A stretch of DNA of 53,498 nt from a virus (taxonomy: Duplodnaviria > Caudoviricetes). Positions 1,101-22,606 of this stretch are shown here, piece after piece. Position numbers and translations under genes: made by a program. The notes under the pieces were generated by a model that had not been told where the DNA came from, made no database searches, and saw nothing but the letters and a program-made list of their open reading frames with translations. The stretch covers positions 1 through 53,498 of IMG/VR virus record IMGVR_UViG_3300046820_000692, one strand, 5' to 3'. How positions within the stretch are numbered: the first letter of the stretch is position 1; each line of letters starts with the position of its first letter.

Positions 1101-4100
1101 TTATTGTGTGAAAAACTTGAGTGCTTCTTCTGGACTAAAAGATTTAGAAAGACCATTAGATATTGGTAAAAGCTTGTTACCCATAGCAGCTGTTTTAGAT
1201 TCACCTTTTAAATGTCCATTACTATTTTTTTGGTAGAAAATCTGCTTAGTATCTTCATCGTCTAACTCTACATCAAGTGCTAGTTTTATTCTGTATGGAA
1301 GCTCTTCTGTTAGAAGTTGATCTATCAACAATGCTGCATCTACGATTGGTCGGCTAAGTGCTGTTGGAGATGCAATGAATCTGTAGAATTCTGCTGGATT
1401 CCAAAACTGAGCTAACTCTGCTTGCATTCTCAAAGCTTGATAGGCAAAAAATGCTGTTGCAAATTGATCATCTTCTTCATCGTCGTCATCTAACATTCCA
1501 AGTAGAATGGTACCTATTACAGTTACTGCAACTAACATTGATATTTCTGCAGTAGTTCTTTTAACATTAGGCTTTTCAAAATCTTCAGAAAGCATCTGGT
1601 ATACAGATCCAAATTTAAAACCTTTACTTATTGACTCTCTCATGTACCGTACAAAACTTGTGTACATACCTTCTGTAATCGTATCAGTCTCTGTGTCAAT
1701 GTGTAAGCCAGTACCAATGCCGTATCCGAATCTTCTACGAAGACCTGGTTGGAAATATCTTCTGTACATAGCAAGAGCTTTACCCCACCATCTTCTGTTG
1801 ATTAATGGGTCATCAAAGTCTGTTTTGATTTGGTTAGTCTTCTTGTATACTCCAGATATTAAGTTGATGATGTTTATTTTTTTGTAGTTAGCTACTCTAG
1901 AATCTAGATCCCACTTACCTGTTTTCTCATCTTGTTTGTACAAGTCCCACAGGTTAGCTTCAGAACCATCTTCATTCTTAATAACTTCTCCATTAACATC
2001 TTTCAATTTTCCTTTCAAAGAATCTGCAATTGCTAATCCACGAGTAACAGCAGTTTCATGTTCAGCCATGTGCTGTGCAAAGAATAATGCATCTCTACCC
2101 ATAGCTTTAAAAGCTCTGTTACCAGTCTTTTTAGTTTTGTAGTCATTTAAGGCATCCCCTAAAATATCAAACTCAGCTATGAATCTAGAAAGTTTTGTAT
2201 CCGGGGAGAACTTACCCATATCCTTAACTGTGTCTCCACTAAGAAGCAGCTTTCCGTATGTAAGTTTAGCCCAAGTTAAATTCTTAGCATTAAAGAACTG
2301 CCCAGCTACTGCTTCCTCCATCAACTTTTCGTTATCAATCAAGTACTGGTTACCTGCTTGCAAGAAGTTAAGAGACAATTGATTTAAAGCTGTAAAGGTA
2401 GTAAGCTTGTTAATGATTTTATTACCACTAATAGTTGCATTACCTATGTTGATACTAGATTTGATTTCAGATTCCCCAAAGAAAATCTTATCAATGAATT
2501 CTGATAAGTGTTGGAAGTTATTAGACACTTCTCCTTTACGTCTAGTATGTCTTGTAACTCCTGCTTTACGTGCAGCAGCACTTAAGAATGGAACATTGTT
2601 AGCATTAACTTCAAGCACTTCACGTCGTTCAACGATGTCTCTCATCATGATAACAGCCCCAGTAATCTCAGACTTTCTCTTAAACATGTTTGCCATTCCT
2701 GCATAAAGTACAATAGTACTTCCTATGTCATGGCTTACAAATTTTGCATCTGTAGGGTTGCTGTAAAATACAGGTACAATTTTATTTCGTTGCTCTTTGT
2801 TAGCATTGATAGACATTCCATAAGAGTCGTCCGTTTCTAAGAAACTAAATTCTCTTTTGGCAAAGTGAACAGCTGATTTGAAAACATTATAACTATCCTG
2901 CTGTATTTTTTCTAATCCTTGTGATTCAACAGATGGTACTACGTAAGACACGTCATCCCAATCATTTTTTAAAGGAGTTTGTTTACCTACTATTCTTTGC
3001 TGTCTATGATATACATCTAAGAATCCTTTGTAATATGCACCAGCGGCTCCTATAGGATTTCCTGATGCATCAATTAATTGGCTGTATCTAGGATTAGCAT
3101 AGTTAGAGTTAGGACGTACTGCCATACCCTTGTACTGATCATTCACAGAGTCATAGATTCTTCCAATCTGACTTTTTAAATCGATTATCTGAGCTTCGTA
3201 TGCAATATACAAATCAGGATTAGTACCTTCTACAAGTTTGGCTTTAGCACTTACATCTCTCAATCGTGCAGTCAGCTTATCTTTAAGCAAAGCTCCTTCT
3301 TCAGTTCTTACTGTGTTTCTGTTATACCACTTAGCTACTTCTCTAAAATATGAAACTCCTTTATCGGATTTTTTCCACTCTTTGAATACTTCGTAGTCTA
3401 CGTTCTTAGGCATCTCATATTTTTCAGCCAACGTTTTCCTCATGCTATATTCGTCCTCGTGGAATTTAGTAACATCATAAGGTTGAACAAATGATAAGAT
3501 TTCCATTCGTTTTTTAAATCCTGTTTTAGGATCATCTACGTAGTAAACTTGAGTCTCTAAAATTTCAGAGTTAAACTTCTTAGGATCTATATCAGTTCCT
3601 TTGTAGTTTGCGTACTCTCTATAGATTGGAGCAAGCTCGTCTATTATTTCTCTTGTATCAGCTGAAGCTTGGTACAGTTTATTTTTAACCATGCTTCCGA
3701 ATAACTGCAGAGTAACTTGAGTAGAGTACATCAATGGGTCCATGTAGACAGAGTAGCCACTCTTGTCTGTCTGAGCTTCACGTAATTCATTTAATAGAGT
3801 TTCTCTTCCAAGTTTTTTGTTTTCAAGTTGCTCTATGTTTAACTCTATAAGTTCGTTTTCGTACTCTTCTTTAGTCAGCTCATCTTCTTGGAATCTTTTC
3901 TTTAAAGCATCATACTTTTCATCTTTTATAATTGATATCAATCTTCGATTGGTCTTTATATTATCAATTGTATTTTGAAGTAAGCTGTCAATTTCTGGAG
4001 TAACATAGTCAAGTAAAATATCTACTTGTACTTCTAATCCAATCTTGTTGTAGATCTTCTGTTGTCTCTTTAAGCTTTTAATTAAGTCTGCAACTTTCTC

Positions 4101-5594
4101 CTCCATCTCAGTAAGCTTAGAGCTTTCTTTACCTTGTCTACCTAAAGTATCTTTCTTTTCTAGAATAGACTCTTCAATCTGAGATAGGACACTTCTTTCC
4201 CCACCCCCAAGTAAATCTTTAATAAGGTTACCTACATTGAGCATGTCTCTTTGGATAGCAAATTTATCGTCTTCTGATAAATCTTTAATGGTATCTTTTT
4301 GAGCCACTACAGCATTCAAGGATTCTCTGTTCAATTTAACAGCTCGATTCAAGTAGTCTAAGAAGTTTGAGAAGTCTTCAATCTTTTTAACTTCTCTCAT
4401 TGTCTTAATGTGAGCTCGTAAGTTAGCAATGACTTCGTCATTCTTAACAGGCATCGACTCAAACTTATCTAACTGTACTTGCAAAGTTTCTGACACAGCT
4501 CCTACCATGTCTCTGAAGTCTTTAAGCTTTGCATCTATAGCTCTACTCTCTTGTATCTCTTCACTTAGTTCTCCAGTAAGTTCTCTAGTATCCAGCTTTT
4601 TGCTTAACAGTTTGTCTACTAAAAGTTCTAAGGCATCATCGTTTAGCTTAAACTCATTTTTTATAGCTCTGAGTAACTTTCTAATGATAGTAAGTAACTT
4701 ATCTTTAGAATTTGCTGGAGCTGTTCTTAAAGCAGCTTTCATACCGATAGCAGTTACCAAAGCTTCTTTTAAAATAAACTCGTCAGACTTGTCTGAGTAC
4801 AATTCTCTAATTTGTCTGTAAAGTTCTGTCTCCAGTATCATCTTGGAAGCTTCCTTTACAAGCTTGTTGTTCTCTCCTAATAAATCTATAAGTATGTGTG
4901 CAAACTCATGGTAGTGAGTATCTTCTGCCATTATTGTGGGGTTAAGTTTTATCTCAACAAGATTATCCTCTACCTTTTCCACCGTTCCTTTTTGACTCAT
5001 CTTTGAATCAAACCTTACTTTTACATTTATTCCAGCTGATGCAAAAGTTTCTTTCAAATGCTTAAGCTGTTCTTCAACAGTAGGGGTTACTGTAAATTTA
5101 TCTCTCTTAGCTTCTGCAGCTGATTGTTCTACGGTTCTTAAAGATGTATCTCTTTCTGGCCTTGCAATAGTTTTGTTTGCTCGATTCTGTCTAACTACTT
5201 CTTTTAATCTGTCATCAGACATTGTAGGGATAGTAATTTCTCTGGCAGCTGAGTATACTTCAGTGTTAAGTATATCATCATTAAACTCTAGAGATATTCT
5301 ATTATTTGATAATTGAGAAGCTGAAAACAATGGCATACCAAAGTGTCTAGCAATAGTGCTATTCACAATGTTTACCATGTTATTAGGGTCAGACAATTTA
5401 CCCTTTGCTATAAACGTACCGTTAGCCGTTACTGTAAAAGTCTCTGGGAACCCATCAAGTAAAGCATACTTAACGATCTTTTCATTAGAACTTTGAGTAG
5501 TTTTTTCAGCCTCTACAGCATTGAATAGATTTTCAAATCTAATAGATCTAGTAGGATGCTCTTGTCCAAAGGTTTCGTAAACTTTACAGGCCAT
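1101..5594 (-). CDS. Giant virion cargo/ejection protein with zincin-like HEXXH motif and C-terminal hydrophobic helix
   Basis: About 1497 aa from ATG 5594 (ORF track starts at GTG 5600). HEFAH at 4896-4910 followed by EALVTAIG; hydrophobic ISMLVAVTVIGTILLGML near the C-terminus; last gene of the vRNAP-associated trio. Confidence 0.75.
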   Translation of the reverse strand: MACKVYETFGQEHPTRSIRFENLFNAVEAEKTTQSSNEKIVKYALLDGFPETFTVTANGTFIAKGKLSDPNNMVNIVNSTIARHFGMPLFSASQLSNNRISLEFNDDILNTEVYSAAREITIPTMSDDRLKEVVRQNRANKTIARPERDTSLRTVEQSAAEAKRDKFTVTPTVEEQLKHLKETFASAGINVKVRFDSKMSQKGTVEKVEDNLVEIKLNPTIMAEDTHYHEFAHILIDLLGENNKLVKEASKMILETELYRQIRELYSDKSDEFILKEALVTAIGMKAALRTAPANSKDKLLTIIRKLLRAIKNEFKLNDDALELLVDKLLSKKLDTRELTGELSEEIQESRAIDAKLKDFRDMVGAVSETLQVQLDKFESMPVKNDEVIANLRAHIKTMREVKKIEDFSNFLDYLNRAVKLNRESLNAVVAQKDTIKDLSEDDKFAIQRDMLNVGNLIKDLLGGGERSVLSQIEESILEKKDTLGRQGKESSKLTEMEEKVADLIKSLKRQQKIYNKIGLEVQVDILLDYVTPEIDSLLQNTIDNIKTNRRLISIIKDEKYDALKKRFQEDELTKEEYENELIELNIEQLENKKLGRETLLNELREAQTDKSGYSVYMDPLMYSTQVTLQLFGSMVKNKLYQASADTREIIDELAPIYREYANYKGTDIDPKKFNSEILETQVYYVDDPKTGFKKRMEILSFVQPYDVTKFHEDEYSMRKTLAEKYEMPKNVDYEVFKEWKKSDKGVSYFREVAKWYNRNTVRTEEGALLKDKLTARLRDVSAKAKLVEGTNPDLYIAYEAQIIDLKSQIGRIYDSVNDQYKGMAVRPNSNYANPRYSQLIDASGNPIGAAGAYYKGFLDVYHRQQRIVGKQTPLKNDWDDVSYVVPSVESQGLEKIQQDSYNVFKSAVHFAKREFSFLETDDSYGMSINANKEQRNKIVPVFYSNPTDAKFVSHDIGSTIVLYAGMANMFKRKSEITGAVIMMRDIVERREVLEVNANNVPFLSAAARKAGVTRHTRRKGEVSNNFQHLSEFIDKIFFGESEIKSSINIGNATISGNKIINKLTTFTALNQLSLNFLQAGNQYLIDNEKLMEEAVAGQFFNAKNLTWAKLTYGKLLLSGDTVKDMGKFSPDTKLSRFIAEFDILGDALNDYKTKKTGNRAFKAMGRDALFFAQHMAEHETAVTRGLAIADSLKGKLKDVNGEVIKNEDGSEANLWDLYKQDEKTGKWDLDSRVANYKKINIINLISGVYKKTNQIKTDFDDPLINRRWWGKALAMYRRYFQPGLRRRFGYGIGTGLHIDTETDTITEGMYTSFVRYMRESISKGFKFGSVYQMLSEDFEKPNVKRTTAEISMLVAVTVIGTILLGMLDDDDEEDDQFATAFFAYQALRMQAELAQFWNPAEFYRFIASPTALSRPIVDAALLIDQLLTEELPYRIKLALDVELDDEDTKQIFYQKNSNGHLKGESKTAAMGNKLLPISNGLSKSFSPEEALKFFTQ

Positions 5595-5606
5595 ATTCAC
5601 TTATTT

Positions 5607-8600
5607 TTATAACATACATAGCTGAGCTACATCATTAGTTGATTCTTTATTAACAGAAGCATCGTAAATTAACTGAGCTAAACTAAGAGCTTCGTTTATT
5701 GGAACGTCGTTACCAATAGTTTTTATATTCAAGAAGTCTCCACCTACGATATGCTTTTTGTTATTATTAACTTTTCGTAAAGATAGGTATTTTGCAGTAG
5801 AATTTTTATTACTGTAGGTGCTATCATCCATAATATATACATCAGTCTTACCTTTATCATCTCTAAGGATTAATATTTTAGGTACGTTTTTTCCGTATTT
5901 CTTAATGGGAACATTAACTTCAGGTTTCAAAAGTTTACCTGCTGCTAAATTACTTCTTTCTACTAAGTTACTTCCTCCAGGACGTATTTCACCAAAAATT
6001 CTGAAGAATCTTATCAAATCTTCCCCTGTAAAGTATGAACTGTTTTGCATCTTCATGCTTTGCTCATGCATATACTCAGCAATGCTTATAGGTTTTAACT
6101 CTTTTCCTTGTGTATCTAATTTCCCTATACGATCTAAAGGTTGGGTATAGAAATTTGCAGGAAGTAAATCTGCAAAGTTATATGCAGAAGTTCTAAATCC
6201 GTTGCTGATAAAGGTGTGCATAGCTATCTTGAATCCAAAAGTTCTGATTTGATCTGCTTTTGCTTTGTAAGATTTCTTTTCTTCTTCTGATGCAGTTCTG
6301 CTTAACTTCCCTAAGTAAGCTTCTGGTCTGTACAAAAGATTAGTTAAGTCATCTTTTATACGTTGCTTTTCTTTTGGGGCATATTGTTGAGTAGCATCAA
6401 AGTTTAGAGTTCTGAATCCTTTAAACTTAACATTATCATTGTCAGCTTTAATTTTAGATAGAAACTCGTTAGCTCTTAGGTTTGGGAATTTTTTAACAAT
6501 GTTATCTAGTTCCCCTAAAAGTGTAAGACTATTTTTACTTGGCTTGTAGGTAGCATCGCTGTAAGCTTTATCAAAGTAAACTCGTAATGGAGAGTCTGGT
6601 CTAGATAAGACGGTAAACATGATTGCAGGATTAACTTCTCTGTGCATATCTGCTGTGAGATTTTCCTTACCTATCATAGCTTTTACAGTTTTCTTAAAGC
6701 TCTTTACTTGAGAAGATAAAGTCATTGGGAACAATATGCTTGCTACATCCAATGTTTCTTGTATCATTTTGTAATAGCCTCTTGAAAGTCCGTATGCAGA
6801 ATCTTCATCTAAAATTTGTTCTACTACATTCTCATCCATAGATCTACCATAGAATGCAATAGGAGCTCTTTGGAATTTACCTTCTGCAGGATTCATGAAT
6901 CTATCTTTTCTTTCTAAGAAAGCTTGCATAGATTCAATTCTATTCAAACCATCCATAGTATCAGGAGTAATTACTTTAAAGAATTCTTTAAGCTGTTGAC
7001 CAGCTGCATAGAATTTCATAAAGTTTGACAATGCAGTTGCTGGACTTACTTTAAAATCCGTAATAGCTTGTCTATTCATTGATTTAGTTTTCTCAATGTC
7101 CTTGTAGTTAGGAGGAAGTGTAGTACCTGTGGTATCTATATTAAACTCTTCTGCAACTGCACGGTATGCATTGTTGATTTGAGTTAAATTTGAACCATAG
7201 TTAATTGACATGATATCTACAAATCTTCTTATGATTGGTTGATTTAAGAAATCATGTAAAAGCTTTGTATCCCCAAAAAAGTTAATCCAATAGTTCTCTA
7301 CAGGGAATGTAATTATGTTGTCATTGATAACATATTGCAATGGATCTTTTGTGGTATCTACAGCAGCTGATAAATAACGGCTGACAATTTTATCTGTAAC
7401 AACGTTATTATCATAAGTAGCATTTTCATTTTTAACTTTAGATAGCAACTTTGTATTTATAACTTCTCCTTCAATCTTTACTGCAAAACTGTCAAAGACA
7501 TTTACTTCTAAGTTTGTAGCTACGTTACGACCGGCCAGTGCATTTGCCCATAGTCCTCTTAGTTTAACCCCTAAAAGATTTCTGATTGAACTTTGAGTTT
7601 CATATTCTCCTCCTGTCCACAATCGGCTAATAGCTAGCTCTGGTCTTCTTTCTATTAATGAATTACGAATAGATGGAAGAGCTGTTGAATCCAAAGGACT
7701 TAAAGTTTCTAAGAAGTGATGAGAGCTAGATAAAACAGCTTCTATTGTATCTAGCATTACATTGTTTAGTTGAGCATCTGATATACCTTTTAGCTTACTT
7801 AAATCTCTGTATACTTCCTCGTAATCAGCAGTTGCTTTAGCCATTACAGTAGTAGTGATAGTGCTTCCGTCAGGGTTTGTAATTGTAACTTGTCTCTCCT
7901 CTAACTCTGGGAAAAGCAAAAACATTTTATCGACGTCAAAGTCAGATCCCATTAACTGTGCTAGCTGTGGTGGAACTATTATCGATTTCTCATGATTCTT
8001 TGGCAAGATAGCTTTGATCCTAAACATGATCATAGATGCCTTATCTTGGTTAGGGATACGGTAGGCAAATAACTTTCTTAAAGATTCTGGAATTTCATCA
8101 AGTGAATATTCTCCTTCAGGAAGGTTAAACTTTCTTAGTACATCTTCACGAACCATTATTTCAGCAGACGATAATCTTAGTCCACTTTTATTCTTAGGAT
8201 TGTTATGAGGTACAATTTCTAAGAACTGCAAAGTATCTAAAGTTCCAACATCATCTTTAGTAATTTTCATAGCTCCTAGAGTACTTGCTTGAACAGCCTC
8301 GTAGCCTGGGAGTCTTTGCTTAAATACATTGTTGTTGTATATGCTAAGCAATGATGATTGGAACTTTCTTCCAAATACTGGGAAGTCTAACGGTATAGAG
8401 AACTTAGGTATTCCTGTAGTCGGATCGATAGTAATGTTTAAAGCTTCAAGATAGTTTTCACTTACATCTGCTTCTACTACTTGTCTTTCTATAATACCTC
8501 TAAGCCTCTGCATAAGCTTCAACTTAGCATCTTTGAATTCCTGAGTTTTTAAAATCTCATCTATTACAACTTTGCCCTTTTTATTTGTAGCATTTTTAAG

Positions 8601-11600
8601 TTGCTCAACGATCTTTTTAAATTCTGTTAATCCGATCTCTTCGTTTACTGTTGCTATGTCTCTGTTGATTCTTTCTTCAATAGCTGCATGATACATGGCA
8701 AGCATTGACTTTCCAGAGATAGTAGTCTCCTTCAAAAAGTTTCTAGGATCTTCTTCCATACCAGCATTTAAGAAGTATATGTTAGAAGGATCTACGTTAG
8801 CAATAGCATTCTTCTTTGCTTGTCTATTGAATATTGCAGTTAGCTCTTTCTTAGATTCTGGGATGATTTGTGGGAATCTAAGTTTACTTGTATCATGAGT
8901 AGCAAGAACAATATCAGTTAGGCTTCCTGGTACATGCTGACCTTTTGCATCTAGCTTTGTTTTAAAGTCGTACACATTAGCAACTAATGTTTTCTTAGCA
9001 GAAAGAGCATGTGCTACTGATATTTTAGGAAGACCTGTATTTGCATATGGACTGCCAATCTCCAAAGGATTCATTTCCAATCTTTGTCTTAAGTCGTCAA
9101 GGATTGGGAATCTTTCTGTGTGTTCTTTTAATGCTACGAAGTAAGCAGTTTTATGAGTTTCAGCAACAGTAACTCCACTTACATTTTTTAAATCTTCAAA
9201 GTAAGGTTTCATAGGAAGTACAGGCACATGATCTCCAATAGATGCTCCTGGAGGAAGTTTCTTTGCATATTGTGCAAGACCTTCTTCACTCATAGGAACT
9301 CTAGGCCCATAGATAAATCTTCCTGTTTTATTATAGTTAAGGTAAGCATCTTCATGATACTCTTTCCATAACCCACGTCCTTGCATTATACTTCTATAAA
9401 AATCCATAGAGATTATTGCAAAAGCATTTGTCTCTTCAAATTCACCTGGATTATATCCGTATAAATCTTTAAGATCTTCTTCAGTATAAAGTCTTTGACC
9501 TTTAGAGTTTACCATGTTTCTTAAAGTGTTCACAGTTCTTGACACATAGTCTTGAGCTGCTTCTTTAATTGCTTGAGTAATATCTAATCTAGGGTCTAAG
9601 AATGTAAAGTCAGTAAAAGTAGGATCGGCTCCATAAGATTCTGACATCCATGTAACTTTGTTCCCTGCCTCTTTAGCTGATAGTGTATTTTTAATTCCCA
9701 ATTTTACCCCAGGAGTAGAAAGCAATCTTTGACGTTTTGTAAAGTCATCATTGTTTTTAAACAATGCTCTGTTACCTCTAGTCATTTTGATTATCTCATT
9801 TCTTCCTAAGTCTTCGTGAACTAAAAAGTCTTTCATCATTTTTACCATTGCTTCTCTTCTAGACTCTCTGGTAATTCCTTTTCCTTTATCTACTAATGTT
9901 CCCCACTTCTGCAAATCTTTCTTTCCAATTTCTAACCCTCTATCAGCCTCTAATATTTTATCAGCTAGAGATTCTGCCATGTTGTTGTAAAATTTACCCA
10001 AGTCAGCAGTCATTCTCTTCAACTCGATTTCATACAGCTTTAAAGTTTTATCTAAAGGAATATTGTTCTTCTTGTATTCAAGATATCTTTTAGTCTCTCC
10101 TGACATTTTTTTAATTACACCGTCAGTCTTTAAGACTACGTCTGTAACAATTCTTTCATTGTTCTCGTAGATACCGTCAAACTGCATGTACTCACTTGAG
10201 ATACCTCTATTAGCTCCAGATGTATATCCTTCTAATTTTACTGCATTAGGATCATCAATGATCTGTTGAGCTTTATCTATACGTAAAAAGTCTTCTAAGA
10301 TTCCTCTTTGAAATACTTCAGCATAGCTTTTAAGATTTAAATTAGGATCGTCATGCCCTTTGATTCTAGGCATAGGTAAGAAGTCTGTACTAGTTCTATC
10401 TCCTGCTGCAGGGATTACTACTTTACAATATTTCTTATCTCCATTGTTTAGATACTCTTGAATTCTAGCTAACACAGCTGTTATTTCATCAAAGTCTTCA
10501 TAATCTGTTGCATCGTCGTGACGATCTTTAACAGCATCTACAGTAGGTACTTTAAAATTTTGTGCAAACTCTGGGTTGTGAAGCAAGTGTCTAAACAAAT
10601 GGCTTAACCCTAGCTCGTTGCTGTATACAAAAACATCTTGTTTATAAAATTGCAAAGCATCTGTACCATTCTTTTCAATATCTCTTTTAATATTCTGAAC
10701 AATATCATCCAAAGGTCTGGTTAAGTTGGTAGGATTCATTAATGAACCTGTAGCACTTACAAAACTTTCTGACGTTTTACTTAAAAATAATGGAGTAAGT
10801 TCTGATAAAAATTTAACCCCTGATCCTTCAATATCAAAATAAGGAATAACTGGAGCAGGTGAATTTCCAAATGTAAGTTGATTCTTTAAAACAGAAAAGT
10901 TTACTACTCCTTTACGTACCATTGAGAATAAACTACCATTAGTTACAATGTAATCGTACAAGTCTTTACCATCTCTTAGTACTGTCTTGGATTTTGTTTT
11001 TACATAGATACCCTTGTCAATAATGTTTTGTAGATTTTTGATAGTATCTTGTATATCAGATTTGTTACCTAGGTTCATACCTAACTCCCAAATCAAACTT
11101 GCTAAACTAATTACTGCTCTAGACGGAGTCCCATCTTCATTTGATTTAAATCTTACTTGTTCTTTAGAAGATATTGCAGATTGTACTCTTTCAAGAGCAA
11201 CTTTAATTCTTTCTACTTTTGCTTTTTTAAGACTGAATGTAGCTATCTCAGACTCTTCATCAAAGTTCTTTACATACAAAGCTCTATTTAATTCTGAAGT
11301 ATCATACTCTTGGCCCCCTACTTCCACTGCTTGCTCTCTCCATTGAGATGCAAGTTTAGACTGTGTTGTTAGGGTATTGGCATTTATTACTTTAGAATCT
11401 TCCCCAAGTATAATTAAATCAAAGTCTCGTATTGTATTAGAGAATGCACTGAACAAAAGTGCTCTATCATCAGCAGGTAATGTGTCAATTTTTGTACTAA
11501 TAGATAGGTAGTCTGGACGATGTCTTGCATAGTTCTTCAACTTTATCTCCATATCTATGAAGTCTTGAGAATCTGCCCACAACTCTAAAAGCTGCTTATA

Positions 11601-13151
11601 AACAAATGGAAGTTCGTGGTAGATAGGTTGATTTGTAATGTATTTATTTTTAACATTCTTTGTAAATACTTTTCCATCTACTTCAATCTGTTCAGTTACA
11701 GGTATTCTTCTTAGTACAGTTTTTGCTCGTTGACTTAATCTTTTAGAGATAGCTACAGCATAGTGTACTTGAGAGTGCTTCTTTTCTTCTACTCCGTCTA
11801 ATGCTTCAAGTGTAGAATCATCTGCGGCATCAAAAGTATCATCCTCTTCGTAAGTTACTTTACTCGTTTTAGAGCTTACAACATATCCAAAATCTTTTAA
11901 CTCTCTTGTTACAAAATCTCTCCAAGCCGGTACGATTGTATTGCCTGTTTTAGCTTCAAACTTACCGTTCCAGTTTTCAATTATGTCAAATATATAGTCT
12001 CTTCTTTGTCTAGTTTCTGCAACTAATTTAAGGTCTCTAGGACTAGGATCTACTGGTACAGCAGGGAAGTTATTTAGGCTAACTTTGTTTGCTAAGTTAT
12101 GAGCTTTGAATGCTTTTACAGCATCATCATATTTCTGCTTGTACTCTGGCTTTGGGTTATTTTTTAAAGCCGTGGCATACCTCTTAGTCTCTCTTTCTAG
12201 AATAAATGACTTTAATAAGATAGGAATCTCTACAGTTTTATTGCTTGGATTTTCTTTTGGAAAAGAATATAATGAATACAAAAGACCATTTACTATAGAA
12301 CCATTTGTTTTAGTGTTACCTAAAATAGATCCCATGTTCACATTATCCCCACGATCATTAATCTCATCTATGACTTTGTGAACTAATCCATCAGTAAGTT
12401 CATCGACAACAGCACTTGGTATCCCGTCTCTATATCTATTAGGGTTAATGTTAGACTGCATCTTTTCAGAATTCCTTAGTACCCCTCTGCCAAACAATGT
12501 TTTATTAACATTATTAGACTTCAATAGTGAATAAGTTTGACGTAATGTCAAATCATTAGAGATGATAGCTTTAATCCACTCTAGCAAATCTTGGAACCAT
12601 TGAAGAATACCTTTAGTTGCAGACGTCTTTTCAGATAGCATAAACGTTCTGAAATCTGTAGCCATCTTTTCTTCAAGAACTAGGTTAGAAGCTTCTTGAT
12701 CAGATATTTTTATTTCTGGGAATTCTTTTTTAATGTCTTCAACTTCAGCAGCTGTAGGTTTTCCGTACATTTTTAGAGCTTCTTTGTACAAGCCTTCTCT
12801 TTGCTTTTCCGAAAGCATTGTTCTAAACATCAAGTGGTACCCTTCATGGAATTCTGTACCAACTTCTGCCTGTCTCCAAATATTTATAGCAGCATTAGCT
12901 ACATATCCATGTTGAGATCTATTGCCTATTTGATTAGCAATATTGTAAAACTTAACTTCTTTACCAGGGAAAGTTTTAGAAAGCCAGTTTTTAGCTTTCT
13001 CTTCATTTATCTTTTCGTAGTCAAAAGAATCTTTGATGTATTCTTCTACATTTCCTTTTGTATCGTTCCAAACTGTATAAGGATACTTAACATTCTTATT
13101 AGCTACTAAGGCTTTCCACTCTGGTAAATTTTTATTAGGGCAAAACGTCAT
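5607..13151 (-). CDS. Virion-packaged DNA-dependent RNA polymerase (crAss-like, phi14:2 gp66-type two-barrel) with N-terminal zincin-like domain
   Basis: 2514 aa. YRIPNQ...GSDFDVDK catalytic DxDxD motif (7929-7943); N-terminal HEGYH (12834-12848)...EEKMATDF; size and position match crAss-like vRNAP. Confidence 0.9.
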   Translation of the reverse strand: MTFCPNKNLPEWKALVANKNVKYPYTVWNDTKGNVEEYIKDSFDYEKINEEKAKNWLSKTFPGKEVKFYNIANQIGNRSQHGYVANAAINIWRQAEVGTEFHEGYHLMFRTMLSEKQREGLYKEALKMYGKPTAAEVEDIKKEFPEIKISDQEASNLVLEEKMATDFRTFMLSEKTSATKGILQWFQDLLEWIKAIISNDLTLRQTYSLLKSNNVNKTLFGRGVLRNSEKMQSNINPNRYRDGIPSAVVDELTDGLVHKVIDEINDRGDNVNMGSILGNTKTNGSIVNGLLYSLYSFPKENPSNKTVEIPILLKSFILERETKRYATALKNNPKPEYKQKYDDAVKAFKAHNLANKVSLNNFPAVPVDPSPRDLKLVAETRQRRDYIFDIIENWNGKFEAKTGNTIVPAWRDFVTRELKDFGYVVSSKTSKVTYEEDDTFDAADDSTLEALDGVEEKKHSQVHYAVAISKRLSQRAKTVLRRIPVTEQIEVDGKVFTKNVKNKYITNQPIYHELPFVYKQLLELWADSQDFIDMEIKLKNYARHRPDYLSISTKIDTLPADDRALLFSAFSNTIRDFDLIILGEDSKVINANTLTTQSKLASQWREQAVEVGGQEYDTSELNRALYVKNFDEESEIATFSLKKAKVERIKVALERVQSAISSKEQVRFKSNEDGTPSRAVISLASLIWELGMNLGNKSDIQDTIKNLQNIIDKGIYVKTKSKTVLRDGKDLYDYIVTNGSLFSMVRKGVVNFSVLKNQLTFGNSPAPVIPYFDIEGSGVKFLSELTPLFLSKTSESFVSATGSLMNPTNLTRPLDDIVQNIKRDIEKNGTDALQFYKQDVFVYSNELGLSHLFRHLLHNPEFAQNFKVPTVDAVKDRHDDATDYEDFDEITAVLARIQEYLNNGDKKYCKVVIPAAGDRTSTDFLPMPRIKGHDDPNLNLKSYAEVFQRGILEDFLRIDKAQQIIDDPNAVKLEGYTSGANRGISSEYMQFDGIYENNERIVTDVVLKTDGVIKKMSGETKRYLEYKKNNIPLDKTLKLYEIELKRMTADLGKFYNNMAESLADKILEADRGLEIGKKDLQKWGTLVDKGKGITRESRREAMVKMMKDFLVHEDLGRNEIIKMTRGNRALFKNNDDFTKRQRLLSTPGVKLGIKNTLSAKEAGNKVTWMSESYGADPTFTDFTFLDPRLDITQAIKEAAQDYVSRTVNTLRNMVNSKGQRLYTEEDLKDLYGYNPGEFEETNAFAIISMDFYRSIMQGRGLWKEYHEDAYLNYNKTGRFIYGPRVPMSEEGLAQYAKKLPPGASIGDHVPVLPMKPYFEDLKNVSGVTVAETHKTAYFVALKEHTERFPILDDLRQRLEMNPLEIGSPYANTGLPKISVAHALSAKKTLVANVYDFKTKLDAKGQHVPGSLTDIVLATHDTSKLRFPQIIPESKKELTAIFNRQAKKNAIANVDPSNIYFLNAGMEEDPRNFLKETTISGKSMLAMYHAAIEERINRDIATVNEEIGLTEFKKIVEQLKNATNKKGKVVIDEILKTQEFKDAKLKLMQRLRGIIERQVVEADVSENYLEALNITIDPTTGIPKFSIPLDFPVFGRKFQSSLLSIYNNNVFKQRLPGYEAVQASTLGAMKITKDDVGTLDTLQFLEIVPHNNPKNKSGLRLSSAEIMVREDVLRKFNLPEGEYSLDEIPESLRKLFAYRIPNQDKASMIMFRIKAILPKNHEKSIIVPPQLAQLMGSDFDVDKMFLLFPELEERQVTITNPDGSTITTTVMAKATADYEEVYRDLSKLKGISDAQLNNVMLDTIEAVLSSSHHFLETLSPLDSTALPSIRNSLIERRPELAISRLWTGGEYETQSSIRNLLGVKLRGLWANALAGRNVATNLEVNVFDSFAVKIEGEVINTKLLSKVKNENATYDNNVVTDKIVSRYLSAAVDTTKDPLQYVINDNIITFPVENYWINFFGDTKLLHDFLNQPIIRRFVDIMSINYGSNLTQINNAYRAVAEEFNIDTTGTTLPPNYKDIEKTKSMNRQAITDFKVSPATALSNFMKFYAAGQQLKEFFKVITPDTMDGLNRIESMQAFLERKDRFMNPAEGKFQRAPIAFYGRSMDENVVEQILDEDSAYGLSRGYYKMIQETLDVASILFPMTLSSQVKSFKKTVKAMIGKENLTADMHREVNPAIMFTVLSRPDSPLRVYFDKAYSDATYKPSKNSLTLLGELDNIVKKFPNLRANEFLSKIKADNDNVKFKGFRTLNFDATQQYAPKEKQRIKDDLTNLLYRPEAYLGKLSRTASEEEKKSYKAKADQIRTFGFKIAMHTFISNGFRTSAYNFADLLPANFYTQPLDRIGKLDTQGKELKPISIAEYMHEQSMKMQNSSYFTGEDLIRFFRIFGEIRPGGSNLVERSNLAAGKLLKPEVNVPIKKYGKNVPKILILRDDKGKTDVYIMDDSTYSNKNSTAKYLSLRKVNNNKKHIVGGDFLNIKTIGNDVPINEALSLAQLIYDASVNKESTNDVAQLCML

Positions 13152-13154
13152 ACT

Positions 13155-16100
13155 CTAGTCAGTGTTACAAGTTTCTTCATGTTCTTTTTCTTGATCTTGA
13201 ATCTCTTTTATCATTTTTTCAGCCTCTGCCAAAGTAATGGTTTTTCCTTCAGCTTTAAACAGATTCACAACTCCTTCAGCATCTATGGCATCCATCATAA
13301 TAGCAGCTTTTACTCCTGCTCCTAGAACGGTTCCTTTTACAAACCCTTCTTTTACTTTACCATTCTTTACAATAGTTGCTTCTTCCTCTTCTAGTTCATC
13401 TTCTGCAGGCTTAACCACTGTCTTACCTTTTTCCTCAGTTGTTGTACTTGCTTTTTTCTTACCACTATTTTTGATAGCTGGGTCAGAATTTGTGCTAGTA
13501 GTCTTTCTTTCAAAGGTAACTTTGCCTGCTAAGACTTCAGAAATTTTAAAGCTTAGCTCGAAATCCTTCTTAGCAAATGTACTAACTTTTTGAATGTTTC
13601 CAACTTCATCATAAGCAATTGGAATATATAATACGTGACCTGATGAAATTCTAACCTTAGTGTTATTCTCCATCCCATGCCCAACTAGCATGTATGCATA
13701 TGCACTAAGTTGAGAACCATGCTGTTGACGTTTACTCTTACTCTTAATCTTTGTTTCTGGGTCTACGTATCCTACATCATACTTTTCTAATCCAGCTTCT
13801 GATCCAGTTTTAATATCGTAGATACTGTACGAGTTGTCTTTATTTTTTACAAGGATGTCAAATTTACCTGCAAGCTTATATTGAGACGTGTATACAACTT
13901 TCTCTACTGCAATTACCTTTCCTCCATTTTTAGTTAAGATTTTATTCATACCTCTTAGCTGAGTCATCAAATCTAAAAATGCTACTGGTTTCATTCCAGG
14001 AGGCCTCTTTACAAGTTTAGGATTCTGCACGTACACTTCAGCTACCTTGTGAACACTTGTACCGGCCTTACTAGAAGCTACTTGTTTCTCTTTTGGACCA
14101 TTGAATGGGTCAGAAGTTCTACTTGTTGTTCTGTCAAATTTCTTAGCAGCTAAATCGTCAGCAGTTTGAATTAAGTAATGTGTTTCTTCTCCTGTAATAG
14201 GATCTTTGTACATTCCTTTAAACTCTTCCTTTTCGATATTGTCTAATATGTTAACAAGGACGTCTTTAGTTACTTCCCCATCTGCATCTACAGTAGAAGT
14301 TTTACCACTTAGTCCTTCATTTTTGTCAGACACTTCAGCTGATACTTCTTCCTCTTCTTCTAATCCTGCTTTCTTTTCAAGTTCTTCAATAGAGTTTCTG
14401 TTTCTATTTTGAGCAGGAGGAGCTTCAACCTCTTCTTCTTGCTCTACTGGTGTTAGAGTTTCTTCTTCAGGTTGAATAGTATTCCCTAATTCATTTTCAT
14501 TCAATAGGTCATTAGACAAATCAACATCGTCATACTCAGCATTTGTGTCATCGTCCTCTACATATTCTTCTTCCTGTTGAGAAAGTTGTTTATCAATAGG
14601 AGTGATTACAGCAGGCTTGGCCGGTGTCTCAGTAAATGGATTTTCTAATGCCTTTCCATCTACTAACATTGGTCCATAGGTAATTCCTACATCAAAAAAT
14701 GGTGATCCAGTTTTTGAATTAAATACTTTATCAGTACTTAATATCCCAGAGTGCCCTAAACTTTCTTCAGCTATATCAGGAATAGCAGCTTCATCCCCAA
14801 GATAATCTAAGTATGTTGCATAAGTAACAGTTGGATCTATTGGACTAGTAAAAGGTTCGTCACTTCCTAATCTGTTTACATCTACTTGATATCTACGTTT
14901 TAAGATAGCAGATGTGAAAGCTTTGTTGATATCATTTTCAAATAGCTTTTGATCTTTTCTTGTAGTGTCGTTTACAAAATCAATTGCTCCTTTTTCAGTT
15001 CTCTCTGCTGTTACAAATCCGTATTTGAATGAAGATGTTCCTGTAAAAGCTAAGAACAAATCTTGAGCACTTATTTGAATGTAACTTTCTGCAGATGGAA
15101 CATAGAAAATGTAGGTAGAAACTTGTTCATCTCCACGATTTATAATATCATGGAAAAGTAAATCTCTATTTTCAAGACCTATAGCAGCTTCTTTACGAAC
15201 ATTAAATCCGACAATATCATTTACTCTATCAAAGTCTTGGTCATTAATTGCTGTAACTACTTTTTGTACTCCAATAGTAGTCATCATTTTAGTAGTCATT
15301 CTTAGGTGCTTGTATCCTCCTAGTGGATCCTCCACTACCATTGCAACTTTACCTAAGTCTCTATCACTGATGTCCCATGCAGTTGTATCTATCTCTACTC
15401 CTTTTGCAACGTTATCTCCATATCTATAGATGGTCCATCTAAGCATTCCTTTAACTGTAGTAGCTACTGCTAGGGTAGGAACAACCTTAGATCCATCTTC
15501 TCTTTTTATAAATGGATTATAGAAATATACTTCTCCGGCTTTTGTTCTAGCATTGGTTATTCCTTTATTAGAATTATATCGTTTTCCTGCAACGGTAGAT
15601 GTAACTTTCTTACCACTTATAATATTCTTGTAGATCTCTTCTCTACTAGAATTTGTTTCTACATTGCCAGGCTTATACCCTTCTAACAATCCAATTCGTA
15701 CAACTCGGCCATCAGCTTGGTAAGCCTTTACAAGAATAGGAATAGACTTCCACATGTCTTCTGGTGTTATTCTTCCAGAAGCTACTTCTTTTTGAAACCA
15801 AACTGAATCACCTATTAGCTCAAATTCTAATGTAGTATTTAATGGGATTAACTCATTACTTGCTAAGTTAAATTGCTCAATTCCTAATCGTACTTCTTTT
15901 CCAACAGAGTTAATTACTGTCGGGGCTACTCTAAGATACTCAGGATTTGATTGAGGTTTTCCATTATCATCAACTTCTATGTGATCAAATCCTCCTTCTT
16001 CGTATTTATATTCACTAGATACAAGTCTAGCATTTATGGCACCACCTTCATTCTCTTTAACAGGAGCTGTAACAGAAGCAGACATTTCTTCATTGTCATC

Positions 16101-19100
16101 TTCAACTACTGGATACTCTACTTCTTCTTCATCATCTTGTATAAAGTTAGAAGAGTCTGTTATCTGTGGAATTTCAGTATCTTCTTCACTTCCTTCTATA
16201 AAGTCTGCATTTGAAATTATTTCAGCAGTTAATATTAAACCTTCTTCTTCACCTAGTCCAGTTTCATTTACATCCACCGTGCCATCTTCAGGTGCTTGAA
16301 CAGCTCCTTCAGTCTCTGGTTGATTTCCTTGTTCTTGAGTGTATTCCGTAGCTCCTTCGGGAGTTTGTAAATCTTGGCTAGCTTGACTTGACTTTCTACT
16401 TTCATATTCTTCGTTTATTCTAGTTAGTTCTTCTTGTATAAATTCTTTTTGAGCTTCTGCTGCATTTAAAAGTCTATTTAGCTCTTCAAGATTATTCACA
16501 TCTTCGTCTGAAGCTATACCATTTCTTACAGCTCCTTCGATAGCATTGATTTCATTAGAAAGATTCTTGATCTCTAAATTTACATCGTCAAGCTTTGCTT
16601 GTGCTTGTCCTGATAAGTCTTCAAGATTTACTTCTTCGTCTACAGTTATTCCGGCTGGAACACTAGTTGACGGAGTTGTTTCTGCAGGTGTTTCAGTTTT
16701 AGAGTGTAATGCATCTACGAACTTTTTGTAATTAGCCTTAGCATCTTTTAAAAGTTTCTGTAATGCAAGTACTTGTGGATCTTTGTTAAACTCTTCTCCA
16801 GACATTTGCTGTCTTAGATAAGATTCTTTTAAGAAACTGTAACTGCTTAATATGTTGTAGATAAAAGTTTTGTACTCTTTAGCAGCTCTTTCAATTGATG
16901 TATTTGAAGAGGTCTTAAGATTTATATCAGTAGTAACTTCTACAGCTTCTGCTTGTTGAGTTAAGGCATCTATCTGAGCATCTACTTTATTTTTTACTTC
17001 TACTTCACTGAGGGCAGCTGTATTAATTGTACCTTGAGAAGCTGCACTTGTAGCTATTATTTCTGCAAGTTCTAATACTAATGTATTATTTTCTTCAGCT
17101 CTAAATATAACTGTTTGCCCAAGTTCGTTTGTAAGCTTTACAGATTTTATAAAAGATATAGACTCATCTTCTGCAGCTAATTGCATAGCTTCTTGATCAA
17201 TGTCAATAGCAGCTAATGGATCTTCTTCTAGATTTTCATAGTTTACTCCATTGACTCTGAGCAATCTACCATTAGTAGATCGTAGTACAATATTATTAGA
17301 GTACGATGTTGTAATACTTTCTTCGTCAACTTCTTGGCTATCTCTTAAAGCATTTGCTGCTTCTTCTGCCTCATCTTCTGCTTCTCTGTCTGCCTTATTC
17401 TTTGCTCTATTTGCTATCTCAGATTCCTCCTGAGTCTCTCCTTTTAGGTCGGCTATAACTTCTCTTAGGGCTAAAGCTTTTTGTGGATCAGCCTCTTCGA
17501 TCTCATCCATGTTCTTAGCTAGATCTTCTAACTCTTCTAAGGATAAAACAATATAGTCTTTTTTAAGCTCTGACTCTATCTTCTTAAGCTCGTCATATTT
17601 TTTATTAACAGCTGCTTGCACTTCTGGATCAAGGGTTTCATATTTCCCTTTTACCATATCGTCTAACTCTTTACTAGTTCTAGCTTCTGAAATTGCAAAT
17701 CCTGCAGCTTTGTTTGCTTTAGCTAATTCAGCTTGACGTGCTATAGATTGCTTAGCAGCTATTGCTAAATCTCTTTTCTCTGGAGATTTTACTAATTCGT
17801 CAAAAGCAGCTAGAGCCTCTTCTCGTAAAGCTATAGTGTTAAATAAATTAGTGTAAGCATTTTTAAATTTCTGTCTATTGATAGGATCTAAACTTTCTGC
17901 TTCTTCTAAAGCTTTGTCTAATCCTTGTAAGAATTCAATATCTTCTTTAGCTTTCCCCTCCTTAGTAATAGTTTTGAATGTAGGCCCAGTTTTCTCTGAC
18001 TCTGCAACCATACCAGCATCAGAAAGCTTAGTGTCTGTTAAAGTAGGTGGCATTGTAATGTTACCATTCTCATCTACACTTACTTTATTTCTTTTTACTA
18101 ATGCTACTAACTTATTGAAATCGTAATTTCCAAATGCCTTTTTTAAGGCATCAGAACTGTTCAACGATATTTCTTGAAGTTCTTTAAGTGATGCATCAAT
18201 TTCCTTTTCTCTTGATTTAATACCTACCATTGATGACAACAGTACAGTCTTAAGTCTTTGATTATAAAGGTTTTGTATTGCAGCCTCTTGCTTAGATTCT
18301 TTTGACATCAGCATTGCACCAAGGCCTTGCTTCTCTGGTTGCATCATTGTAATGATACTATCAATATCATCACTAAGTTTTGCAAACTCTTTTAGTCTTT
18401 CTTTCTTCTCGTTTATTAATTCTAAATGATTTTTACCACCTGTCTGCTCTTTTAGAGGAGTAGTCAAATCGTAACCACCACGTTTCATAAACTCTTCTTC
18501 AGATAAACTTCCTAAGTCATCTAGCTCTTCAAGACCTAAACTCATGGCTCCTAGTGACTGCAGCTTTGAAGCTCTAGCAGCATCTAGGTTCATTCTCAAT
18601 TCTTCTGCAAGTTTAAAGTTACCTACAGCATTAGCATCTTGAATATTTTTAATAAGCTTTAACTGCTCTACGTTAGCTTCTGCAGAAGCCATCATGTTGG
18701 CAAAAGATCCAGAGTTTTTTATCTCTAATAACTTTTCAGTGTTAGCTTTTAATTGCTTACGTTGTTGAGATTCTGCTCCAGAGATTGTTGAAGAAGCTCC
18801 CATCATTCCTCCAGTGATAGCCCCTAAAAGCATAGACTCTAATCCTTCGGTTGTCCCAAAAGTATTAGATAATCCTTCTACAACAGATTGTGTAATATCA
18901 GCAACACCATCATCAAATTTGTTTCTGAAGTAGCTATTACCTACATCTCCAATCATAAACTGAGCACCTTCTTGGAAAGCTTCAGTTAATGCATTTTCAT
19001 ATATAGGTTTTGCAAATCTATTAGCATTTCTAAAAGTTCTTCCAAATGCAGTTTTAGCAGTTGCTTCTACAAACTTTTCCCCATCATTTACTATGGCATT

Positions 19101-20251: not shown

Positions 20252-22588
20252 TTAGAATTCTACCAAAGGAAGACCAAAGTTTGCTTTGCTTGGGTCTTTT
20301 CCTACAGCATTTACAAGTTGCTTCATGTACGGCTCATTCATCTTCATTTTTTTAGGGGCAACTATATCCTTTCCATTAGCATCTTTTCCTATAACAACTG
20401 AAGCACTATTTGGGCCGGCTGTGCCAAATGGATTTCCATTAACATCAGTTATAGTTAAATATGAATCTCCATATGTATCTCCAGCTTCTACTGTAAGAGT
20501 GTAAGGTTTTTGTACAAGAACTCCATTTTCGTCGGCATTTATAAAAATAGTACGTCTTGATAATTCTCCAGGTTTTGCTCCAAGGTTTATTGCATATATA
20601 GCTCCAGCTAATCTATTTTCAGGAGTGTTTAATGCTTCTATGCTACTGCTAGTAATTCTTCTACCATCCATTTTAACAGTTTTAGCATTTTTACCTTTAG
20701 AATCTACCATGTTAATTTCAAATATTTTAGATGTTGGATCGTAACCAACACTTGACACTTTGTAATCTTCATAATCAGATCCAACTTTTTGCTCTACTCC
20801 ATCTTCCGTAACTTCTGTTACTTGGTCAGAAGCTCTTAATGGTTTGCCTACAAAGTATTGGTCAATAGATTTTCTAATTATTACCCCCTCTTGCACGGTA
20901 GCAGCAGGGATTACTCCATATTCAAACGGAGTAGCAACCTTAGTCTCTCCAAAGTTTTGATTAATCTTATCTCTAAACCCATTAAATGCAGCAGGAATTA
21001 ATGAAAGATCTTCTTTTCCACCTGGTACTCCTCCTGAAGGTGCTCCAATTACAGACCCTCCTCCAATTGTCAACCCTTGCATAGTGTTTCGTTTGAATTC
21101 TCCACCATGCATTTCAGTGTAAACCTTTTGGAAATCCATGTAATCTTGGTCTTTATTATTATCAAAGGTTTCTGTAAGCTTCATGTACAATTCTCCTGCA
21201 CCTGCCCAAGGATAAAGCTTTTGTAAAGCATCTACAACTTTTGGATCTGCTTTTTTAAGATCATCTACACTAAATGCTCTATCTCCTGCTCTTACAATTT
21301 GAGCTCTAATCTCATCCATTTGAGCACGGTAGCTTATTACTTTTTGTCTAGCTTCATCTTTAGATTGTTGAGATAGATTAGGCTGATTCATTATCTCTTG
21401 CTGCCTTGTCATTTCTGCATAGGCATTTTTATAATTATCAATCTTAGCAGTAAAGTTACTTCCGTAAGTATCACTAGCTGTTACATCTCCTATAACTGTT
21501 AAGTCTCCTCCTGAAGCTATTTTAGCTTCTCTATCAGCTAGATATTTAGCACTCCAACTTTCAATGTGCTCCTGCTCTACAGATCTATAAGCTTTCTTAA
21601 GACCATATTGAGTTACTGGTGCTAATAAGGCTTCTTTATATTTACCTTTAAGATATTGATGTGCAGTATTTTCATCACCAATAGTTCCTAATTGATTTAG
21701 CTCTTCTTGGTACTTGTTAATCTGCAACTGCATGGTAGCTTTATCTGACTTTGTAAAGTTGCCAGTACTCATCTGCTCAGTAAGCTTATTGATAGCTTCT
21801 TGATAAGCATTAGCTTGAGTTCCAATAACTGTTTGAAAATCACCATTTTTTCCTACTGCATTAACAGCTTTCATGTCTGCCAATTGATCTATGTAGGCTC
21901 TTACATCTGGTTCTTGATAAACAGCTTCTAATACCTCTCTAATACTTTCAGGACTGATTGTTTCAACTGTTGAACCTGTTTGAACTTCTATAGCTCCTGC
22001 TTCTCCTTCTGCCCAGTTTACTCTTTTAATTTTGTTTCCGTATTTTTCTGGGTGAAGAATCTCCAATCTTTCTTTTACAAGATCCATTAACTTAGGATCT
22101 TTTACAATGGTAGGGGCACTAAACATTGTACCTTCTTTTACCTTGGTGCCAGTTTCATCGGTTTCAAATCCTTTATATCCTTTAGTAATGTACCCAGCAC
22201 TTAATGCATATTGCTCAGAATTAATATCTCCTTTCTCATATCGTTCTTTTAATCCTGCTAACTCTGATTGATATCTAGTGTAGTTTTCTTTAATCGGGGC
22301 ATAAGCTTTAGCAAAATCTTTAGAAGCTCTATGCACAGCAAATCCAAGATTTTCATAATCTCCTTGCTCAGCTAACTTTCCTAAATTCTCTTCTAATTGT
22401 CTTTGAATTTCTTTTTTTCTTACAACATCATTTTCAAAAGGTAAAGCAGCCTGCATTTGATCTACAGCCATAGCTAGTTGATCATTTGCTTGAAAGTTTT
22501 GCATAAATCTATCTCTAAGGGTTTCAGAGATTTTAACAGATTGTGGGTCAACGTATGTACTTACATACTCTCCAAACTTATACGGCAT
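20252..22588 (-). CDS. Putative virion cargo/internal protein
   Basis: 778 aa, Cys-free, helical-looking N-terminal half; lies between the muzzle gene and the giant cargo genes as in crAss-like phages. Confidence 0.55.
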   Translation of the reverse strand: MPYKFGEYVSTYVDPQSVKISETLRDRFMQNFQANDQLAMAVDQMQAALPFENDVVRKKEIQRQLEENLGKLAEQGDYENLGFAVHRASKDFAKAYAPIKENYTRYQSELAGLKERYEKGDINSEQYALSAGYITKGYKGFETDETGTKVKEGTMFSAPTIVKDPKLMDLVKERLEILHPEKYGNKIKRVNWAEGEAGAIEVQTGSTVETISPESIREVLEAVYQEPDVRAYIDQLADMKAVNAVGKNGDFQTVIGTQANAYQEAINKLTEQMSTGNFTKSDKATMQLQINKYQEELNQLGTIGDENTAHQYLKGKYKEALLAPVTQYGLKKAYRSVEQEHIESWSAKYLADREAKIASGGDLTVIGDVTASDTYGSNFTAKIDNYKNAYAEMTRQQEIMNQPNLSQQSKDEARQKVISYRAQMDEIRAQIVRAGDRAFSVDDLKKADPKVVDALQKLYPWAGAGELYMKLTETFDNNKDQDYMDFQKVYTEMHGGEFKRNTMQGLTIGGGSVIGAPSGGVPGGKEDLSLIPAAFNGFRDKINQNFGETKVATPFEYGVIPAATVQEGVIIRKSIDQYFVGKPLRASDQVTEVTEDGVEQKVGSDYEDYKVSSVGYDPTSKIFEINMVDSKGKNAKTVKMDGRRITSSSIEALNTPENRLAGAIYAINLGAKPGELSRRTIFINADENGVLVQKPYTLTVEAGDTYGDSYLTITDVNGNPFGTAGPNSASVVIGKDANGKDIVAPKKMKMNEPYMKQLVNAVGKDPSKANFGLPLVEF

Positions 22589-22606
22589 AATTTTTAAAAT
22601 TAAATG

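Follow-up and report, generated by a model that had tools for sequence, protein, structure and literature searches.

Paired cysteines at the gene boundaries of the crassvirus virion RNA polymerase module suggest a disulfide-stitched cargo chain

The 53,498-nucleotide (nt) stretch analysed here (the window; positions 1 to 53,498 of the IMG/VR record IMGVR_UViG_3300046820_000692) comes from a divergent crAss-like phage, of which it is the structural arm; its structural genes, as recognised with PHROGs, lie on the minus strand. Three giant genes follow one another on that strand and encode proteins of 2356 amino acids (aa) (13155-20225), 2514 aa (5607-13151) and 1497 aa (1101-5594, counted from the ATG at 5594; from a GTG start the gene would span 1101-5600 and give 1499 aa). 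Together these proteins hold 5 cysteines (Cys) in 6,367 residues (0.08%), against 58 in the 10,140 residues (0.57%) of the other 22 open reading frames (ORFs) of the window, and four of the five stand 3-4 residues away from an end facing the adjacent protein. At the first boundary (junction 1), Cys2353, the sole Cys of the 2356-aa protein and four residues from its C-end (TGT, 13167-13169, minus strand), faces Cys4 of the 2514-aa protein (TGC, 13140-13142, minus strand). At junction 2, Cys2512, three residues from the C-end of the 2514-aa protein (TGT, 5616-5618, minus strand), faces Cys3, the sole Cys of the 1497-aa protein (TGT, 5586-5588, minus strand). The fifth, Cys909 (10425-10427, minus strand, computed from the ORF start), is the only interior Cys of the 2514-aa protein and occurs in some close orthologues only. 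The outer ends of the trio, that is the N-end of the 2356-aa protein and the C-end of the 1497-aa protein, carry no Cys, and the two virion proteins of 778 and 1280 aa encoded directly upstream (20252-26449, minus strand) are Cys-free, with junctions that lack a Cys pair. The initial annotation had noticed this pattern, and its Cys total, its four terminal codon positions, the single internal Cys of the 2514-aa protein, the Cys-free chain ends and the two Cys-free neighbours were all confirmed. The probability that at least four of five Cys fall by chance within 5 residues of the ends (30 of 6,367 positions being eligible) is ~2e-9, and the end placement in the trio is not chance, because it is kept in the relatives described below.

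On profile and motif evidence, the 2514-aa protein is a crAss-type virion RNA polymerase (vRNAP) of the phi14:2 gp66 family. A profile built from it and 18 orthologues matched the solved phi14:2 gp66 (6VR4, 6vr4_A) with E = 1.5e-26, and tblastn aligned it with the 'putative RNA polymerase' of crAss001 (36% over ~170 aa, E = 2e-16). Residues 1735-1742 read GSDFDVDK and contain the catalytic motif DFDVD (residues 1737-1741; 7929-7943, minus strand, computed from the ORF start), for which the phi14:2 preprint gives the definition DFDxD; D1737, D1739 and D1741 are invariant in 19 sequences. Two single-sequence searches were negative: phmmer with the vRNAP alone found no match among solved structures, where the profile did, and a single-protein scan of viral contigs found none of the loci that the alignment-based scan recovered. 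Likewise, Pfam and PHROGs gave no family for the 2514-aa or the 1497-aa protein, and megablast of the region against phage records returned no match. The gene closes a structural module that also encodes terminase, portal and major head protein, a context that fits a packaged protein; packaging of the vRNAP for transcription of early genes would fit this setting as well. The trio is the crassvirus virion RNA polymerase module, which in other crassviruses is one polyprotein of ~4,600-6,700 residues, and its members are the same proteins as gp67-gp66-gp65 of phi14:2, gp47-gp50-gp49 of crAss001 and the fused polyprotein.

Orthologue sets were assembled by protein searches, and a Cys was scored as terminal when it lay within 10 residues of a protein end. 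The terminal Cys were found to be conserved, as the initial annotation had anticipated. Among 63 vRNAP homologues, down to ~22% identity, both ends bear a Cys in 49; a further 13 have the C-end Cys alone and one the N-end Cys alone, and no homologue is without a terminal Cys. The 14 one-sided homologues include 10 long forms (3,428-4,135 aa) and two short fragments; the remaining two, P0032 and P0049, may be mis-started ORFs. Seven of the eight proteins of the upstream set, the window protein included, have a single Cys no more than 4 residues from the C-end and at that end only, the exception being the eighth, shorter protein, which lacks it. In the downstream set, 41 of 45 proteins have Cys at the N-end, mostly as M-x-C, and lack it at the C-end. 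The four exceptions are three short proteins (1,042-1,198 aa) and P0087, which starts just past the expected Cys. Alignments at 32-58% identity place Cys4, Cys2512 and Cys3 in invariant columns (19 aligned orthologues for Cys4 and for Cys3). Since the terminal Cys are kept even in vRNAP relatives rich in interior Cys (e.g. 20-24 Cys), they are not mere leftovers of Cys depletion.

The alignment-based scan of viral contigs yielded 78 loci, in which plus-strand ORFs of at least 300 aa were taken from the first ATG after the upstream stop, mostly within a few codons of that stop. L043 was dropped for having no ORF of at least 900 aa, and the removal of 10 of the 78 loci whose core was more than 95% identical left 68 non-redundant loci, the window included. 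Junctions were defined as same-strand ORF neighbours separated by less than 1,500 nt, and Cys were counted within 10 residues of the facing ends. The 68 loci contain 147 junctions: 79 with a Cys pair, 64 without Cys on either side and 4 with a Cys on one side only (Fisher p = 8.7e-37, uncorrected for kinship). In the 79 pairs, the distance of the C-side Cys from the end ranges over 1-6 residues (mode 3), the N-side Cys occupies position 3-6 (mode 3), and the codons are TGT in 138 cases and TGC in 20. Interior Cys number 62 in the 358,094 residues (0.017%) of 143 ORFs of at least 1,100 aa, giving a chance of 0.0017 of finding one in a given 10-residue window. Outer N-ends carry Cys in one of 54 complete first members (L013, whose upstream neighbour lies beyond the contig end), and outer C-ends in none of 55 last members. 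In the loci compared, the pairing of junction Cys is a conserved rule across Crassvirales.

The one-sided junctions comprise L061 and L072, in each of which a gap of more than 1.1 kb precedes a Cys-rich ORF that appears to be unrelated, and L057 and L049 (upstream ORF ending in Cys); three of the four have gaps of 620-1,147 nt. The sole real exception in offset is L057 (L057:14140-14290). There the C-side Cys of the vRNAP form a CGC pair, at 27 and 29 residues from the end, with a Lys-rich tail after it, and the next chain member is preceded by two additional ORFs, of 172 aa (resembling the ferritin-like ORFs described below) and 345 aa. L019 (L019:3900-4907) is an apparent exception: its upstream chain gene is broken by a frame change, either an assembly error or a real frameshift, and the continuing frame ends ..KKKEC directly before the vRNAP start. 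The N-side Cys stand in two recurrent contexts, one being x-x-C-P-N and the other M-A-C followed by basic and then aromatic residues. The CPN-type end belongs to the vRNAP in the window and to the last protein in L042, L047, L051 and L052-type loci, which suggests that domain order differs between lineages.

In the 42 complete chains, the module is encoded by one to three ORFs whose summed lengths are similar (4,055-6,672 aa), and its Cys content follows the number of pieces. Seven of the eight complete single-ORF forms (4,642-5,555 aa) are without any Cys, the eighth, L045, having two interior ones; most of the 12 two-piece chains have exactly two Cys, i.e. one pair, and the 22 three-piece chains have at least four. 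The loss of the pair at gene fusions, another expectation of the initial annotation, was thus borne out. The Cys-free 5,515-aa ORF of L023 is collinear with the window trio, matching in gene order the 2356-aa protein with E = 3e-70, the 2514-aa protein with E = 1e-147 and the 1497-aa protein with E = 2e-132. In an alignment of split and fused forms, the short tails that bear the Cys stand opposite gaps in the fused proteins; at an identity of ~25%, this result is only indicative.

When split state and Cys state were scored on either side of the polymerase, with neighbours cut by the locus end set to unknown, 48 of the 78 rows received a score for the N side and 70 for the C side. All 34 split cases on the N side have Cys and all 14 unsplit cases lack it; the C side gave 54 split cases with Cys, two without (L057 and L061), 14 unsplit cases without and none with Cys. 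A first classification had left six discordant loci, of which L013, L024, L025 and L072 were due to contig ends or length thresholds; of the other two, L061 has an unrelated Cys-rich ORF after a 1.1-kb gap and L057 is real. A FastTree phylogeny of the polymerase core requires at least six changes of split state on the N side and at least seven on the C side, with equally many changes of Cys state. Among independent pairs, split and Cys changed in the same direction in 4/4 (N side) and ~4/5 (C side), and never in opposite directions.

Comparison of these loci shows that where the module is cut into separate genes, Cys lie near each new C-end and N-end, the rest being almost Cys-free. The pairs follow the boundaries, not position or adjacency. 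In eight loci (the L052 group: L052, L056, L059, L063, L065, L068, L070 and L076), the polymerase is cut ~80 residues before the catalytic core, at about residue 1485 of the window vRNAP, and this site, non-homologous to the window junctions, is flanked by a Cys pair. In the same eight loci and in L039, L042 and L057, 11 in all, an ORF of ~160 aa lies inside a Cys-pair junction, at two different junction types, and the pair is kept. The L052 insert (L052:9276-9752) matches Ferritin PF00210 (E = 3e-12) and Rubrerythrin, the other copies being judged alike from their translations only. A 1.2-kb gap within a Cys-pair junction of L078 (L078:16691-17887) contains an ORF that, by eye and from its N-terminal residues, resembles a GIY-YIG endonuclease, together with a 202-aa ORF starting MNC.

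Named crassviruses behave in the same way. In crAss001, gp47 (2,341 aa), whose sole Cys is three from the end, is encoded on the opposite strand from gp50 and gp49; gp50 (2,412 aa) has Cys 5, 1334 and 2404, gp49 has Cys 5 alone and gp46 has none. In phi14:2, the sole Cys of gp67 is its last residue, gp66 (2,180 aa) has only Cys 3 and 2179, and the sole Cys of gp65 is residue 3. IAS virus and cr118_1 (Suoliviridae) also obey the rule, the IAS record having ambiguous bases at one boundary.

Across these comparisons, Cys is conserved in both partners of a junction and lost together, and this comparative evidence supports the interpretation put forward in the initial annotation, that the facing ends are linked. 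We think it probable that the facing terminal Cys are joined head to tail by disulfides, which would take the place of the polyprotein's peptide bonds. Within the virion, each protein would be bonded through its C-terminal Cys to the N-terminal Cys of its successor, and the disulfides would produce one linear, unbranched thread equivalent to the polyprotein. With short stubs and no other Cys, such a thread could travel partly unfolded through the portal and the tail channel, free of loops and wrong cross-links. A link of this kind would also fix a 1:1:1 stoichiometry and the order of exit, from which we infer an ordered ejection as a single thread, and thiol reduction in the host cytoplasm would then cut it, freeing the polymerase and its partners. 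Under the disulfide proposal, the Cys would lie near the ends because the thread is unbranched with short stubs, and other Cys would have been purged because loops and wrong links are avoided; the proposal would also account for the Cys-free outer ends, the Cys-free one-piece forms and the gain of both Cys at a new cut. That Crassvirales package the polymerase module as a redox-cleavable pseudo-polyprotein, a disulfide-stitched thread of 4,600-6,700 residues that is ejected via the tail and falls apart in the reducing cytoplasm, is a claim for which we see the chances as evenly balanced.

Structural data on related virions and predictions for the window proteins can be set beside this proposal. 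In crAss001 particles, the gp57 dimer, the tail hubs and rings R1-R2 have been described as containing intersubunit disulfides, and according to the crAss001 paper the cargo proteins must pass constrictions partly unfolded. In two AF2 models for the window vRNAP, both of modest confidence, Cys4 lies in a coil (residues 1-9) before helix 1, in a model with a mean pLDDT of 61, and Cys2512 in a C-terminal tail with pLDDT < 50; the low confidence is compatible with flexible ends, without being proof of flexibility. A complex prediction for the C-terminal 250 residues of the vRNAP and the first 260 of the 1497-aa protein, run without controls, scored 0.00 and speaks neither for nor against binding.

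Several points weigh against joining by disulfides. The cytoplasm in which virions assemble is reducing and gut crassviruses live under anoxic conditions, and oxidation of the thiols is thus in doubt. The disulfides seen by cryo-electron microscopy could have formed during aerobic purification, and the cargo proteins are not resolved in the crAss001 maps as published. Recombinant phi14:2 gp66 was reportedly purified and active with dithiothreitol (DTT) present, meaning that the Cys are dispensable for catalysis, a result that is silent on linkage. The stub of L057 is longer than the idea of a thread favours, the independent-pair tests are each too small to reach p < 0.05, and the tree behind them is a FastTree of a deeply diverged core. 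Finally, with one Cys per end, a disulfide would look the same in sequence as a metal bridge or another thiol adduct. If the facing ends shared a metal ion (Zn or Fe) or some other bridging group, the proteins would still form a chain, with a different release trigger. The comparative evidence speaks for such a bridge as it does for a disulfide, the reducing assembly cytoplasm would suit it, and iron or redox chemistry is hinted at by the ferritin-like gene that 11 loci carry within the junction. However, the window and most loci lack that gene, and each end has a single conserved Cys with no recurrent adjacent His, Asp or second Cys, so that a full metal site is not apparent; we regard a metal bridge as improbable.

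The terminal Cys could instead be independent end tags, serving homotypic dimers or polymers or contact with another virion part, and lost on fusion because internal Cys are harmful. Published estimates for crAss001 put several copies of each protein in a virion, the partners in three-piece chains are not assignable from sequence alone, and a 220-aa protein of the window also has its sole Cys as the last residue. Such tags nevertheless seem unlikely: the Cys are restricted to internal junctions and stand nearly always on both sides (two of the four one-sided cases among the 147 precede a Cys-rich ORF), the outermost ends lack Cys though those proteins are packaged too, the new split site gained both Cys at once, and the Cys-free one-piece forms imply that an outside partner is not required. 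A different thiol role, for example in redox sensing, in marking ends for processing or quality control, or in a short-lived covalent step during packaging, would leave no lasting link in the virion. The two recurrent N-side contexts (xxCPN, and MAC with an aromatic-rich stretch) might be recognition motifs; on the other hand, family searches offered no candidate enzyme or partner in the window, and the strict tie to gene boundaries is most simply read as two ends meeting, which leaves a role of this kind doubtful. Taken together, the other thiol roles, joined or unjoined, amount to a sizeable minority possibility.

We give very little credence to the Cys pairs being an artefact or by-product, whether as leftovers of Cys depletion, through a nucleotide constraint such as translational coupling, or through stop read-through that makes a polyprotein. 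The three window genes do share one reading frame, with gaps of 3 and 12 nt (13152-13157 and 5595-5609, minus strand), and junction 1 has a single TAG. Junction 2, however, reads TAA-AAA-TAA, with two stops, the gaps of relatives (1, 2, 10, 11 and 13 nt) are out of frame, so that the common frame in the window looks like coincidence, and a tRNA search of the window found none, hence no suppressor tRNA. Moreover, the pairs are kept where the genes lie on opposite strands or are separated by inserted genes of ~480-500 nt, both Cys codons are used, and conservation extends down to ~22-25% identity. Read-through or a recoded polyprotein was rejected on the double TAA, the out-of-frame gaps and the lack of a suppressor tRNA in the window, and translational coupling or a nucleotide motif on the survival of the pairs after loss of adjacency and the use of both codons. 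An intein or split intein was also rejected, since the stubs beyond the Cys sum to 2-9 residues and the ends carry no Pfam or PHROG domain; so was a lipobox or CaaX box, motifs of fixed position (a signal peptide ahead of the lipobox, or Cys exactly four from the C-end), since the distance of the C-side Cys from the end varies over 1-6 residues (mode 3) and the N-side Cys occupies position 3-6 with no signal peptide ahead of it. A Cys-containing protease site does not agree with the Cys-free fused forms and was discarded as well.

Elsewhere in the window, PHROGs identified the terminase large subunit (50111-52084), the portal (47819-50029) and the major head protein (43494-44915), together with several further virion structural proteins, all on the minus strand. 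In the ORF list, the structural genes are followed by a run of giant genes, of 1628, 1280, 778, 2356, 2514 and 1497/1499 aa. Near the C-end of the 2356-aa protein lies a PD-(D/E)XK nuclease domain (13617-13949, minus strand; PF12705, E = 1.2e-5; phrog_298 exonuclease). An invariant HExxH occurs in the N-terminal domain of the vRNAP (H102, E103 and H106; 12834-12848, minus strand), ~100 residues from Cys4. In the alignment of the 1497-aa protein, a second invariant, zincin-like HExxH occupies residues 229-233 (H229, E230 and H233; 4896-4910, minus strand), which fits the expectation from the zincin-like domain reported for phi14:2 gp65. A 'cysteine switch' acting on a nearby HExxH was set aside as a function of the terminal Cys, as it leaves the C-terminal Cys and the upstream protein unexplained. 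The 220-aa protein with a last-residue Cys (32734-33396, minus strand) has no family match, and the 5'-cut first ORF of one locus (L049:1-981) ends ..KKMNC; both are possible further cases of a conserved C-terminal Cys, without an obvious partner. A 164-aa protein (39515-40009, minus strand), with no PHROG or Pfam family, contains 12 Cys (7.3%), four of them in its last nine residues.

Crassviruses reportedly outnumber all other viruses in the human gut, and an open question raised in the literature on them is how several hundred kilodaltons of polymerase-related cargo are packed and injected in the right amounts and order. If the facing ends are indeed joined by disulfides, a split polyprotein would be kept physically continuous in a way that we have not found described for any phage. 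The purge of other Cys would be explained, and a disulfide would stand in for the peptide bond at any gene split, according to the rule Cys = 2 x (pieces - 1). As phi14:2 and crAss001, both cultured, have exactly four terminal Cys each, the rule is directly testable. Whatever the chemistry, the terminal Cys are an aid to annotation, marking true starts and ends, mis-started or broken calls (P0087 and L019) and the chain membership of virion proteins.

Part of this picture is known. All three proteins of the trio have been found in virions and their fusion into one polyprotein has been published; in the text of the phi14:2 preprint, the fused polyprotein is proposed to be cleaved, and a joining of the split proteins is not proposed. 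The word 'cysteine' is absent from the available text of the crAss001 atlas, as are 'cysteine' and 'disulfide' from that of the phi14:2 preprint, and full-text literature searches, which did not extend to supplements or the journal version of the phi14:2 work, found no report of the terminal-Cys rule or of a joining role. The proteins, their presence in virions, the fusion and, in N4-like phages, Cys suppression are therefore known, whereas the terminal-Cys rule and the proposed joining appear to be new. Suppression of Cys in ejected proteins has been described for N4-like phages (Schitoviridae; DEV gp71/vRNAP, gp72 and gp73, and N4 gp50) and explained there by envelope passage. The crassvirus module resembles the Schitoviridae in having a giant ejected vRNAP and partners that are nearly Cys-free (interior Cys as given above). 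It differs in that the published account of the Schitoviridae proteins has them as Cys-free, with rare Cys judged to be annotation errors, while the terminal Cys of crassviruses are strongly conserved. Intersubunit bonds in phage particles are familiar from the crAss001 proteins named above and from the tail-tube rings of siphoviruses, where they are reported as structural. These known virion disulfides brace folded, symmetric assemblies outside the cell, whereas the link proposed here would join flexible ends of different ejected proteins and be broken after entry. In two-chain toxins, one interchain disulfide holds the parts together during unfolded translocation and is cut in the reducing cytosol. 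Although the toxin chains arise by nicking of one polypeptide, their Cys are not terminal and there is no homology, the two systems would be alike in principle.

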